Below are positions 3,205-14,157 of a stretch of DNA of 29,211 nucleotides, one piece after another. The notes under the pieces are model-generated. The model was not told where the DNA came from. It saw only the letters and a program-made list of their open reading frames with translations, and did not search any database. The stretch spans positions 1 to 29,211 of the forward strand of contig JARBTU010000001.1 in assembly GCA_029240015.1 (NCBI GenBank), written 5' to 3'. A program made the translations under genes and the position numbers. The stretch is from Oscillospiraceae bacterium. Lineage in GTDB: Bacteria > Bacillota > Clostridia > Oscillospirales > Ruminococcaceae. Numbering within the stretch: the first letter of the stretch is position 1; each line of letters begins with the position of its first letter.

Positions 3205-4074
3205 TTACAGGGTCTTTGCGAGGTTCTTAATATATTCTTTTAATCCATCTCCGATATCTTTGTGAGTAATCCCCACTTCGATTGCCGCTTTCATGATGCC
3301 GAGCTTATTGCCCATATCATATCTTGTTCCGTCAAAATCCACTCCGATAATTCCCTCAGTGTGAGCAAGCTCTTTCATAGCATCTGTAAGCTGTATCTCT
3401 CCACCTGCACCTGTTGGTGTGTTCTCAAGAATTGCAAAGATTTTGGACGGCAAAACGCAACGTCCCAATATTGAAAATAATGACATAATCTCTTCCGGTT
3501 TCGGTTTTTCAATCATGTCTGAAATTTTATATAAGTTGTTTTTCAGATGTTCCACTTTCATGGAAGAATATTTTTGAATATCCTCTTTGCTGACTTCTTT
3601 GATTCCTACTGTTCCAAGCCCATATTGCTCATAAGCGGAACAAAGCTGCCTGCAAGTTGGGTTTTCTCCAAGAATCACATCGTCCCCATACAACACCGCG
3701 AAAGGCTCGTCCCCTACAAAAGAACGTGCACACATAATTGCATGGCCCAATCCTTTTGTTTCCTTTTGCCTCACATAAGTGATGTTGGCAAGTTCGGCTA
3801 TCTTCCTTAAATCATTGTATGCTTCAATTTTCCCTGATTTCAGAAGACGTTCTTCGAGTTCAGGTGAACGGTCAAAGTGGTCTTCAACAATCGCTTTTCC
3901 CCTGCTCGTTATAACGAGAATGTCTTCTATTCCGCTTTTAACAGCCTCTTCAACAATATATTGTATAGCTGGTTTATCTACAATAGGAATCATTTCTTTC
4001 GGCATCGCTTTTGAGGCAGGGAGCACTCTTGTCCCCAATCCGGCTGCGGGTATCACCGCTTTTTTTATTTTCAT
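3205..4074 (-). CDS. galU: UTP--glucose-1-phosphate uridylyltransferase
   Basis: KKAVIPAAGLGTRVLPASKAMPKEMIPIVDKP, KGLGHAI, GAGGEIQLTDA, RYDMGNKLG. Confidence 0.97.
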   Translation of the reverse strand: MKIKKAVIPAAGLGTRVLPASKAMPKEMIPIVDKPAIQYIVEEAVKSGIEDILVITSRGKAIVEDHFDRSPELEERLLKSGKIEAYNDLRKIAELANITYVRQKETKGLGHAIMCARSFVGDEPFAVLYGDDVILGENPTCRQLCSAYEQYGLGTVGIKEVSKEDIQKYSSMKVEHLKNNLYKISDMIEKPKPEEIMSLFSILGRCVLPSKIFAILENTPTGAGGEIQLTDAMKELAHTEGIIGVDFDGTRYDMGNKLGIMKAAIEVGITHKDIGDGLKEYIKNLAKTL

Positions 4075-6390: not shown

Positions 6391-6426
6391 AAAAGTGATA
6401 TTTCGCTAATACGAAATATCACTTTT
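6391..6426. terminator. Bidirectional terminator between prfB and dnaJ
   Basis: 15-bp perfect stem AAAAGTGATATTTCG-ctaata-CGAAATATCACTTTT between convergent genes. Confidence 0.85.
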
Positions 6427-6431
6427 ATTTT

Positions 6432-7583
6432 TCATTTATCAAAAGCATCTTTGAGTTTATCGAAAAAGCCTTTTCTTTTTTCATAATGCTTTTCGCTAAG
6501 CTCGTCATCCAACTGCTTGAGAATGTCTTTGTGAACTTTAGACAGATTTTTCGGAACTTCTATTGTCACCTCGACATACTGGTCTCCGCGGGATTTAGAG
6601 TTAATCTGTTGAACGCCTTTTCCCTTCAATCTGAAAACCGTGTTCGGCTGTGTTCCTTCTGCAAGATCATACTTCACCTTTCCGTCAATAGTCGGAACGG
6701 TGATTTCATCGCCCAAGGCGGCTTGGGTATAAGTGATCGGGATTTCCACCCAAATATCATATCCTCTGCGCTTAAAGATTGGGTCTGGACGAACTGTAAC
6801 TGTGATATTAAGGTCTCCCTTTGGTCCGCCGTTAACACCACTGTCGCCTTTTCCCCGAACAGAAAGTGTCTGCCCGTCGTCAATACCTGCTGGAATTTCC
6901 ACCTCAAGCTTTTGAGTAGAGCGGATTCTTCCCGAACCGGAACATTTGTTACAAGGATCGTTAATAATTTTACCTTTTCCCGAACAACGGGAGCAAGGCT
7001 TTGTGGATGTCATTGCGCCGAAAGGTGTCCTCTGCTGCACTCGAATCTGCCCCGAGCCACCACAATCAGGGCAAGTCTGTGGCGAGGTTCCTTTTTTTGC
7101 TCCGTTTCCTCCGCATTCACTGCAGTGCTCCATAGAAGAAACCGAAACGTCTTTCTTAACCCCTTTGCAAGCTTCCATAAATTCGAGCACGACCGTAGTT
7201 CTAAGGTCATCTCCTCTTCGCGGCGCATTTGGGTTCGCCCTTCTGGAACTTCCGCCGAAACCGCCGCCAAAAAAGCCTTCAAAAATATCGCCTATATCCC
7301 CAAAGTCAAAGCCGTTAAAGCCACCGAAACCACCCGCTCCCGCTCCTGCGGAAGGGTCTACTCCTGCGTGACCAAACTGGTCATATCTTGAACGTTTCTC
7401 GCTGTCCGACAACACTTCATAAGCCTCAGAAGCTTCTTTAAACTTTGCTTCTGCGGTTTTATCGTCGGGATTAAGGTCAGGGTGATGTTCTTTCGCCTTT
7501 TTTCGGTAGGCCTTTTTTATATCATCTTCACTGCAGCCTTTTTGAAGCCCCAGTACTTCATAATAGTCTCTCTTATCTGCCAA
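6432..7583 (-). CDS. dnaJ: Chaperone DnaJ
   Basis: J-domain with HPD, G/F-rich region and four CxxCxGxG repeats. TTG start. Confidence 0.98.
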
Positions 7584-7727: not shown

Positions 7728-9569
<1,842 letters not shown>

Positions 9570-9635: not shown

Positions 9636-10187
9636 TTAAGGGTTTGCAACAACAACCATTGCGTGTCTGATTACTTTTTCTCCCAGAAGATATCCTTTTT
9701 GAAACACTTGACAAACCGTATTTTCACCGAAGTTCTCATCTTCAATCTGGTTTACAGCATTATGAAGTCTTGGGTCAAACGGATTGCCCATGGCCTCAAT
9801 TTCTGTTACACCGATTTTTGTTAAGCTGTCTTTAAATTGATTAAAGATCATCTCAACACCTTTTTTGAATTCGCTGTCTGAACTTTCATATTCCAAGGCT
9901 CTTTCAAAATTGTCGATCACACCGATAATATCCCCAAGACAGCTCACCGTTGCATCTGCAAAAAGCTCCTGTTTTTCCTTTGCGGTGCGCTTTCTGAAAT
10001 TTTCAAACTCAGCCATTTGTCTTAAAAGTTTGTCTTTCAAACCGGCATTTTCCTCTTCCAAAGCTTTTATCGGGTCCAGGTTTTCTTGCCCGGTTTGTTC
10101 CTCATTTCCCTGAACTGTTTCCTCAACAATCTCTTCTGTTGTCTCATTTTCTTTTATGTCTTCCTTTTTACTTTTGCTCTTCGACAC
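9636..10187 (-). CDS. grpE: Nucleotide exchange factor GrpE
   Basis: AEFENFRKRTAKE, FDPRLHNAV, FQKGYLLGEKVIRHAMVVVAN. GTG start. Confidence 0.97.
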   Translation of the reverse strand: MSKSKSKKEDIKENETTEEIVEETVQGNEEQTGQENLDPIKALEEENAGLKDKLLRQMAEFENFRKRTAKEKQELFADATVSCLGDIIGVIDNFERALEYESSDSEFKKGVEMIFNQFKDSLTKIGVTEIEAMGNPFDPRLHNAVNQIEDENFGENTVCQVFQKGYLLGEKVIRHAMVVVANP

Positions 10188-10190
10188 GTT

Positions 10191-11255
10191 TTAGTCCCCT
10201 TTCTCGTCGTCTTGTTCAATCATTTGTGACAATGCGTTGCTTATTCCGTTAGAAAAATATTCGATGTATGGAATGATTTTCGCATAGTCAAGCCTTATCG
10301 GACCTATCACGCCAAGCGAACCGACATTCGCATTTCCCATACTGTACTGGGATAGGATGAGACTTGAATTCGTAATCGCAAAATTGTCATTCTCTTTCCC
10401 GAATATAATGTTTATTCCGTCAAAAGCAGAATTCAATAAATTTGCAAGTTCATTTTTGCTGGAAATAAATTTAATAATCTCGCTTGCATCAAAATCTTTA
10501 TAGGTCAAAAGGTTCGTTTCACCTTTGATTCCAACATCTCTGTGAAGAAATTCGCCTGAAAGCTCATACACTGCATACAACAGCGGGGATAATGACATCA
10601 TATAGCTTCCCAGAGCCACCGCAAGGTTTTGGATAAACGCCGGATTGAGGTTTTGTGTTTTGATTCCATAAAGGTTCTTGTTGATAAACTTTGCAAAAAA
10701 GTCCAGCTGTTCATAGTTTAAATCAAATTCAACCCGACATATTTTATTTTTAACTTCTCCCACCGAAGTAATGATAAGAAGCGCATAAAGCCTTCTTCCC
10801 GCCGGGACGACCTCCACCCGAGTGATTACCGAAAATTGAGGCATTGCCGACATGTTAATCGTCGCATATCCTGTCAATTCCGCAAGCGCTTCGGCAGCAC
10901 TCCCAACAACAGCTTCAGCAGTTAGATTTTTTTGCAGCAAAAAACTGTCGATCAACTCTTTCTCTTCTTGAGTCAGCGGCTTTTGAACCATAAGCTTTTC
11001 GATATAAAGGCGATATCCCAAATAAGATGGTACTCTTCCTGCGGAAGTGTGCGGCTGTTCAATGAACCCCAGCTTTTCCAAAAGCGCCATATCATTTCTG
11101 ATGGTAGCACTCGAGACCGTGTCTTTTAACAGGGACGCAACCGCCTTTTATCCAACAGGTTCGCCGGTCTTTATATATTCCTCTATGATTACCGCTAAAA
11201 CCCTCAGCTTTCTGTCGTCAACGTTGAAGGCCTTATCATCTTGAAAGACTTTCAT
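10191..11255 (-). pseudogene. hrcA: Heat-inducible transcription repressor HrcA with an in-frame premature stop
   Basis: The frame from ATG 11255 reads MKVFQDDKAFNVDDRKLRVLAVIIEEYIKTGEPVG*KAVASLLKDTVSSATIRNDMALLE...QPHTSAGRVPS. TAA at 11150-11148 sits where HrcA has the conserved Ser of EPVGS. The remainder (GVIGPIRLDY) is intact. Confidence 0.88.
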
Positions 11256-11287
11256 AGTTATCACTCATTTTTTATATTTCTATATTA

Positions 11288-11314
11288 TTAGCACTCTTAT
11301 CTCTTGAGTGCTAA
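11288..11314. promoter_or_regulatory. CIRCE operator (HrcA binding site)
   Basis: Exact consensus TTAGCACTC-N9-GAGTGCTAA, upstream of hrcA and overlapping the predicted transcription start. Confidence 0.98.
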
Positions 11315-11318
11315 TAAT

Positions 11319-11347
11319 AATATATCCCTTTATTATACTGATGTCAA
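11319..11347 (-). promoter_or_regulatory. sigma-A promoter of the hrcA-grpE-dnaK-dnaJ operon
   Basis: TTGACA-N17-TATATT directly upstream of CIRCE. Confidence 0.75.
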
Positions 11348-13629: not shown

Positions 13630-13658
13630 TTGACAAAAAATTAAAAATATAATAAAAT
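13630..13658 (+). promoter_or_regulatory. sigma-A promoter of the fluoride riboswitch-fluc unit
   Basis: TTGACA-N17-TAAAAT. Confidence 0.7.
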
Positions 13659-13666
13659 AATACTCA

Positions 13667-13727
13667 GGGAATGAAGTTCTCCCTTGCTTTCATGCAAAAC
13701 TGCTTTTAACAGCTAATGACTTCTGTA
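13667..13727 (+). ncRNA. Fluoride riboswitch (crcB motif)
   Basis: GGGAATGAAGTTCTCCC...AAACTGC...AGCTAATGACTTCTG fits the crcB motif: P1 GGGAA/TTCTCCC, pseudoknot GAAG with CTTC, conserved GAUGA-like/AAUGAC segments. Directly upstream of fluc. Confidence 0.92.
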
Positions 13728-13756
13728 ATGTTCTGATTACAGAAGTCATTTTTATT
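13714..13756 (+). terminator. Riboswitch expression-platform terminator
   Basis: AATGACTTCTGTAAT-gttctg-ATTACAGAAGTCATT-TTTATTT; the 5' arm overlaps the aptamer 3' end. Confidence 0.88.
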
Positions 13757-13767
13757 TCATATAAAGG

Positions 13768-14157
13768 ATGGATAGATTTATGATAAAATGTATTTTTATA
13801 GGATTAGGCGGATTTATCGGCTCTATTTGCAGGTATCTTGTGGGTCTTGCTTTTTTAACAGCTTCGTCCGCTTTCCCCATCTCGACACTAATCATCAATT
13901 TCGTGGGGTCTTTTATCATCGGAATCATCACTGAATTTTCAATAAAAATAGTTCCTATAAATACAAATTTACTAGCCTTTCTGACTATTGGAATCTGCGG
14001 CGGCTTTACAACTTTTTCAACCTTCTCCCTTGAGACCATAAATTTATTTGAAAAAGGAAAATTAGCGCTAGGTTTTGCTTATGCCTTATCCAGTGTGGTA
14101 TTATGCCTCACTGCGGTTATCGCAGGAAAATGTTTGATACGCTATATTGCTCATTGA
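13768..14157 (+). CDS. crcB: Fluoride channel Fluc/CrcB
   Basis: GLGGFIGSICRY, STLIINFVGSFIIG, GICGGFTTFSTF signature. Alternative start at ATG 13780. Confidence 0.96.
   Translation: MDRFMIKCIFIGLGGFIGSICRYLVGLAFLTASSAFPISTLIINFVGSFIIGIITEFSIKIVPINTNLLAFLTIGICGGFTTFSTFSLETINLFEKGKLALGFAYALSSVVLCLTAVIAGKCLIRYIAH

Follow-up and report, generated by a model that had tools for sequence, protein, structure and literature searches.

A premature stop codon in the hrcA gene of an uncultured Oscillospirales bacterium: recent null allele or assembly error?

Introduction

The class I heat-shock operons of the Firmicutes share a recognisable organisation, in which a sigma-A type promoter is followed by a perfect CIRCE operator and by the genes hrcA, grpE, dnaK and dnaJ, with a second CIRCE located before groES-groEL. 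The locus described here follows this pattern in gene order, in promoter and operator, and in the HrcA_C domain and conserved N-terminal motifs of the encoded repressor, but differs from it in one respect: the repressor gene is broken by a TAA at codon 36. This raises the question of whether the stop codon is present in the cells from which the DNA was obtained, in which case they would lack HrcA, or whether it is an error in the assembled sequence.

The sequence comes from a metagenome-assembled genome (MAG; designated G000) comprising 264 contigs with an N50 of 7.9 kb, a G+C content of 39.5%, 79% completeness and 0.5% contamination. The window, that is, the whole stretch of DNA analysed (29,211 nucleotides), is an entire contig that at 29 kb is among the longest of the MAG, and the hrcA stop lies in the middle of this contig, not at an end. 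At around 60% identity, the named homologues of the HrcA protein belong to Oscillospiraceae, Massiliimalia and Paludicola, and these similarities place the organism, which is uncultured, in the order Oscillospirales.

An otherwise ordinary class I heat-shock operon

The operon is encoded on the minus strand. Its sigma-A type promoter, TTGACA-17-TATATT (11319-11347), matches the consensus at 11 of 12 positions and is overlapped by a second candidate promoter, TTAACA-18-TATAAT (11361-11332). Between promoter and first gene lies the CIRCE operator (11288-11314), a perfect consensus of the form TTAGCACTC-AAGAGATAA-GAGTGCTAA with an N9 spacer; that both elements are intact had been claimed in the original prediction and is confirmed here. 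Downstream of hrcA, three intact genes follow in the usual order: grpE (9636-10187, 183 amino acids; Pfam GrpE, E 4e-48), dnaK (7728-9566, 612 amino acids) and dnaJ (6432-7583, 383 amino acids, with a J domain, a CXXCXGXG domain and a C-terminal domain). The grpE gene begins with a GTG at 10187, three nucleotides past the hrcA stop codon, and its ribosome-binding site, AAAGGGGA, is found within the 3' end of hrcA, as had been noted previously. A terminator-like hairpin on the same strand (6391-6426), with a 16-pair stem followed by a T-rich tail, closes the operon.

When the whole MAG was searched for CIRCE with up to three mismatches, two copies only were found, both of them perfect. The second (G000:C35:4694-4720) is located 36 nt upstream of groES in a groES-groEL operon. 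The locus therefore has the arrangement of an HrcA-CIRCE regulon, with CIRCE sited between the promoter and the first gene, hrcA-grpE-dnaK-dnaJ in that order, and the dnaK and groE operons both carrying the operator. In a regulon of this type, bound HrcA represses these operons and heat lifts the repression. Elsewhere in the window, on the plus strand, a fluoride riboswitch (Rfam RF01734, 41 bits; 13658-13732) is found directly 5' of crcB (Pfam CRCB; 13768-14157), the pairing usually seen for this riboswitch.

The hrcA gene and its in-frame stop

Translation of hrcA would start at the ATG at 11255, from which the frame reads MKVFQDDKAFNVDDRKLRVLAVIIEEYIKTGEPVG, then TAA at 11150-11148, then KAVASLLKDTVSSATIRNDMALLEKLGF. 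Codons 1-35 (11151-11255, minus strand) encode helix 1 of the winged helix-turn-helix together with the EPVG motif. The in-frame TAA at codon 36 (11148-11150, minus strand) replaces a nearly invariant serine that starts helix 2. The remainder of the frame, codons 37-354 plus the normal stop (10191-11147, minus strand), is fully conserved and stays open, with neither a second stop nor a shift, as far as the TAA at 10193-10191, giving 354 sense codons in all.

That this is hrcA is evident from the protein that the read-through frame would encode. The Pfam HrcA_C domain (PF01628) is matched over the entire length of its profile (1-215 of 215; residues 114-328 of the frame; E 3e-43), and the Thermotoga maritima HrcA protein of known structure (1STZ) aligns with residues 11-339 (E 2e-24). 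In this alignment the stop falls opposite Ser39, in the N-terminal winged-helix domain. The two proteins are only distantly similar, and the gene of T. maritima has no interruption. The N-terminal winged helix-turn-helix is itself readily identified by its GEPVGS and VSSATIRNDM motifs, in which every invariant residue is present bar the serine at the position of the stop. What the locus lacks is the uninterrupted frame of ~340-370 codons expected of an hrcA gene, because of the TAA at codon 36. Judged by these features, the locus is an hrcA gene, but one that is non-functional as written.

The affected residue is almost without variation. Among 119 homologues, drawn from a search of 5.8 billion proteins and aligned, 118 have serine at position 36 and one has threonine. 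In the DNA of 37 relatives, all of them uninterrupted at this codon, the serine is encoded by TCA (14 genomes), TCC (13), TCG (7), TCT (1) or AGY (2). From TCA, the commonest of these codons, one C>A change suffices to produce the TAA seen here. The original prediction, that a stop replaces a conserved serine in a gene with no other lesion and that a single TCA>TAA change is enough, is thus borne out by the reading frame, by the alignment and by the relatives' codons; its coordinates and all its other statements about the sequence are also correct. The simplest description of the locus is accordingly that of an ordinary Firmicute operon in which a single base change would have converted the Ser36 codon TCA to the ochre codon TAA.

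Consequences of the stop for HrcA and its regulon

An AlphaFold model of HrcA, built from 43 sequences, was used to place the stop within the structure. The model is confident in the N-terminal domain only, with block means of pLDDT of 74-90 across residues 11-130 and a whole-model mean of 58. Within this domain helix 1 spans residues 14-30, helix 2 residues 36-42 and the recognition helix residues 49-62, so that in the model the stop falls on the residue with which helix 2 begins. Should the cells themselves have this base, translation would end after 35 residues. The first in-frame ATG, GTG or TTG beyond the stop is the ATG at 11090 (Met56), located within the recognition helix, and it is preceded by no GGAGG-like or purine-rich ribosome-binding site, in agreement with what had been proposed for this codon. 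A protein restarted at Met56 would, going by the model, be missing helices 1 and 2 and half of the recognition helix and, for this reason, no DNA-binding HrcA would be made. As written, then, the allele is null.

Could another protein stand in for HrcA? A search for a second hrcA copy, suggested earlier as a check, found none in the 79%-complete MAG. CtsR gave the same outcome: nothing in the genome matched the Pfam CtsR family, nor did the window show a CtsR box. The assembled part of the genome thus offers no obvious back-up repressor.

Deletions of hrcA in Bacillus subtilis are loss-of-function mutants, and the allele described here, if real, would resemble these and other engineered or selected hrcA mutants in being a null allele of the same repressor, differing from them in that it is known from a metagenome assembly alone. 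[quoted passage not shown] More speculatively, the ~1 kb of hrcA mRNA left untranslated might exert some polarity on grpE, dnaK and dnaJ.

These effects presuppose that the TAA is recognised as a stop, and an alternative is that it is read through or bypassed, whether by recoding of TAA, by a suppressor tRNA or by efficient reinitiation, so that functional HrcA persists. One observation is in keeping with this, namely that the frame downstream of the stop is intact. Genome-wide recoding is ruled out by the use of TAA as the terminator of 344 of the 524 long open frames (66%), hrcA itself included, and the earlier view that TAA is a normal stop here, making recoding unlikely, is upheld. ARAGORN identified 22 tRNAs, an incomplete set, and one tmRNA in the MAG, with no ochre anticodon and no suppressor among them. 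Reinitiation would have to make use of Met56, the only restart codon, lying as it does in the recognition helix with no ribosome-binding site. Lastly, in-frame stops elsewhere in the MAG (see below) stand opposite a mixture of unrelated amino acids (His, Tyr, Thr, Phe and Asp), which speaks against any consistent reassignment. We regard read-through or bypass as extremely unlikely.

The age of the lesion and its absence from relatives

How long might the gene have carried this stop? To judge from its other conserved positions, hardly any time at all. Of 85 columns that are at least 95% conserved in the homologues, the hrcA frame departs from the consensus at the stop alone and matches at the other 84, compared with a mean of 0.7 departures in the homologues themselves. 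Both CIRCE operators are likewise perfect. With gene and operators otherwise undecayed, the change must be very recent if it is real at all, and the original description of it as a recent event is supported to this extent. A fixed, long-standing trait of the lineage is not what the allele looks like.

The distribution of hrcA points in the same direction. Nearly all genomes sampled from the family carry the gene (391 of 401; 314 of the 315 of high quality), and no internal stop was seen in the relatives inspected; loss of the gene would therefore be unusual in this group. The hrcA matches of several relatives (G020, G021, G040, G281, G218, G192, G167 and G052) were initially flagged as containing one TAA, but these flags were rejected: no stop lies within residues 10-348, and those retained by BLAST sat at the edge of the alignment, either before the start codon or beyond the C-terminus. 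The closest relatives of this hrcA are only 72-73% identical to it, and no conspecific sequence was found, the best other protein among the 5.8 billion being 72% identical; the 299-residue ORF downstream of the stop is a singleton in the same protein collection. A 29-nt pattern, exact but for an N at the variable base, had no match in metagenome contigs; a scan of such contigs guided by the protein recovered one locus, at 61% identity, and nothing closer.

These observations bear on the suggestion that the allele is real and was fixed by selection, HrcA repression having been given up in favour of constitutive chaperone expression as an adaptation to stress or temperature. In its favour, the allele is null as written, and there is no second hrcA and no CtsR among the genes found. 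Loss of HrcA is also tolerated in other Firmicutes: an Enterococcus faecalis hrcA::Tn mutant is viable and has been used in evolution experiments (bioRxiv 10.1101/2023.07.31.551240). In addition, one clinical study named hrcA as a pathoadaptive gene in Achromobacter xylosoxidans (PMC8269239). A long-standing loss, however, should be accompanied by decay of hrcA and of the two CIRCE sites, none of which departs from expectation; moreover, the stop is shared by no related genome examined, and the assembly contains several other disruptions besides it. Beyond the stop itself, nothing computed here favours an adaptive loss, which is, in our view, very unlikely. A broader reading is that this lineage has truly, if recently, been left without its sole class I heat-shock repressor and maintains high levels of DnaK and GroEL constitutively, no CtsR having been found in the assembled 79% of the genome; this too seems improbable.

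Other disrupted genes in the assembly

If the stop is not an old one, the alternative to a young allele is an artefact of sequencing or assembly, in which case the organism would have TCA (serine) at codon 36 and a functional HrcA, the wrong base having arisen in a low-coverage, fragmented MAG. The contig count, N50 and completeness given above make this plausible, and a flawless set of conserved columns accompanied by two perfect CIRCE operators is just what would be seen if a working gene had been miscalled at one base. To see how the hrcA stop compares with the rest of the assembly, we searched all of the MAG for in-frame stops with coding-like sequence on either side and compared the candidates with Pfam, with paralogues and with the complete DNA of a relative, G123 (1.33 Mb in 17 contigs). 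An intrinsic codon-score screen for split genes proved noisy, with 187 candidates, and the paralogue- and relative-based screens were dominated, prior to filtering, by off-frame 'shadow' alignments. The lists of disruptions were curated by eye from this noisy output and the counts that follow are therefore lower bounds and partly subjective.

At least five further conserved genes of the MAG contain in-frame stops. A class I/II aminotransferase gene has a TAG (L046:454-456 on contig G000:C176, plus strand) that is spanned by the Pfam domain and is occupied by histidine in the uninterrupted genes of G127 and G258, which are 64-66% identical. In ogt, encoding O6-methylguanine-DNA methyltransferase, a TAG (L064:367-369 on G000:C212, plus strand) lies inside the DNA-binding domain where a paralogue has tyrosine. 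A gene of ~1,050 codons for a putative glycoside hydrolase of the GxGYxYP family contains a TGA (L063:901-903 on G000:C106, minus strand); a paralogue on contig C34, at 43% identity, spans this position with a threonine, and the Pfam N-terminal domain also runs across it. The ruvA gene has a TAG in the sequence GNEV*FFTYLYVRED (G000:C236:77-79, plus strand), a mere 77 nt from the end of the contig, a closeness that makes assembly error a reasonable suspicion. Finally, the ATPase gene of an ABC exporter has a TAG in its C-terminal region, GTH*ELLSIKEGLY (G000:C240:9740-9742, minus strand), 26 codons before the normal stop, where the relative has aspartate.

Two more cases are less clear-cut. 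A gene for an AraC-type regulator is probably split by an in-frame TAA (L065:571-573 on G000:C261), several paralogues aligning across it. At the junction of sirC and hemC a TGA (L043:721-723 on G000:C185, minus strand) is preceded by the start of the HemC domain match, 23 residues upstream; HemC proteins typically begin with ~45 residues that seem to be absent here, and this odd junction may represent a further disruption. Four other candidates, designated NuoC/NuoD-like, HisKA/ABC, MerR/Fe-ADH and Sua5/CoaE, were rejected as ordinary adjacent genes.

A search for changes of frame against the ~1,100 long ORFs of G123 returned one true case, in the gene for pyruvate:ferredoxin oxidoreductase (PFOR; G000:C63, ~3375-3378, minus strand). 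Here the sequence reads TCC AAA AAT CAG GTG where SKKSGG is expected, a -1 frameshift in a run of five A residues; a run of six would restore the frame. The shifted gene, whose product is 71-79% identical to that of the relative, encodes the only PFOR detectable in the MAG, and the frameshift probably stems from an error in the consensus.

Applied in reverse, to the 17-contig G123, these screens yielded a single clear in-frame TAG and one ambiguous case, but no frameshift. The clear case (L123:7421-7423; G123:C17:87421-87423, plus strand) reads SEEYSLIPYEMGKVA*FFGKQYL, and G000 has lysine at this position (46% identity, E 4e-75).

Allele or error?

The hrcA stop is not, then, singular in its assembly, and some of its companion lesions look like consensus errors, above all the one-base homopolymer frameshift in the sole PFOR gene and the ruvA stop close to a contig end. 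The stops in the aminotransferase, ogt, GxGYxYP and ABC ATPase genes add to this picture, as does the smaller yield of disruptions, one or two stops and no frameshift, from the better-assembled G123. There are arguments on the other side. The hrcA stop lies mid-way along a contig that ranks among the longest. Errors do not pervade the assembly, since the comparison with ~1,100 long ORFs of the relative revealed a single disruption of the indel type. PFOR excepted, the disrupted genes are of kinds that can usually be dispensed with, as would be the case for real pseudogenes, albeit in a small sample. Even G123 has at least one in-frame stop, so cleaner genomes have them too. Balancing these points, we put the chance that the TAA is an artefact somewhat below even.

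For a real allele, the same mid-contig location can be cited, together with the viability of hrcA knock-outs elsewhere. Counted against it are the poor state of the MAG, the error-like cases of PFOR and ruvA, the otherwise perfect condition of hrcA and its operators, and the universal presence of the gene in the family. If it is real, the allele would be very young, and would most likely be a loss-of-function variant, segregating or confined to a strain, that was captured in the MAG consensus alongside several other disrupted genes. That the stop is such a real, young and probably segregating null allele is a reading to which we give an even chance.

Concluding remarks

The hrcA stop most plausibly belongs to the class of ordinary nonsense pseudogenes and MAG consensus errors, being like them a one-base lesion that puts a stop in frame within a conserved gene left intact elsewhere, and differing from them in no respect. 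The literature searched contains no direct precedent for natural nonsense alleles of hrcA, only viable knock-outs and one pathoadaptive report. Whether the stop proves to be a nonsense mutation in the gene of a dispensable repressor or a wrong base in a MAG, it is of an already known and ordinary kind, and no new biological system is involved.

The practical lesson is a simple one. Several conserved genes of this MAG hold single in-frame stops and one a frameshift, and isolated lesions in assemblies such as this therefore need the support of reads before they are taken as biology. Should the hrcA stop prove real, it would add another to the natural loss-of-function alleles of a repressor that is well studied and dispensable, and would change no concept. 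It would be of mild interest for chaperone dosage in gut-type anaerobes and, were it a recent true loss, would offer a natural experiment in unregulated chaperone expression.
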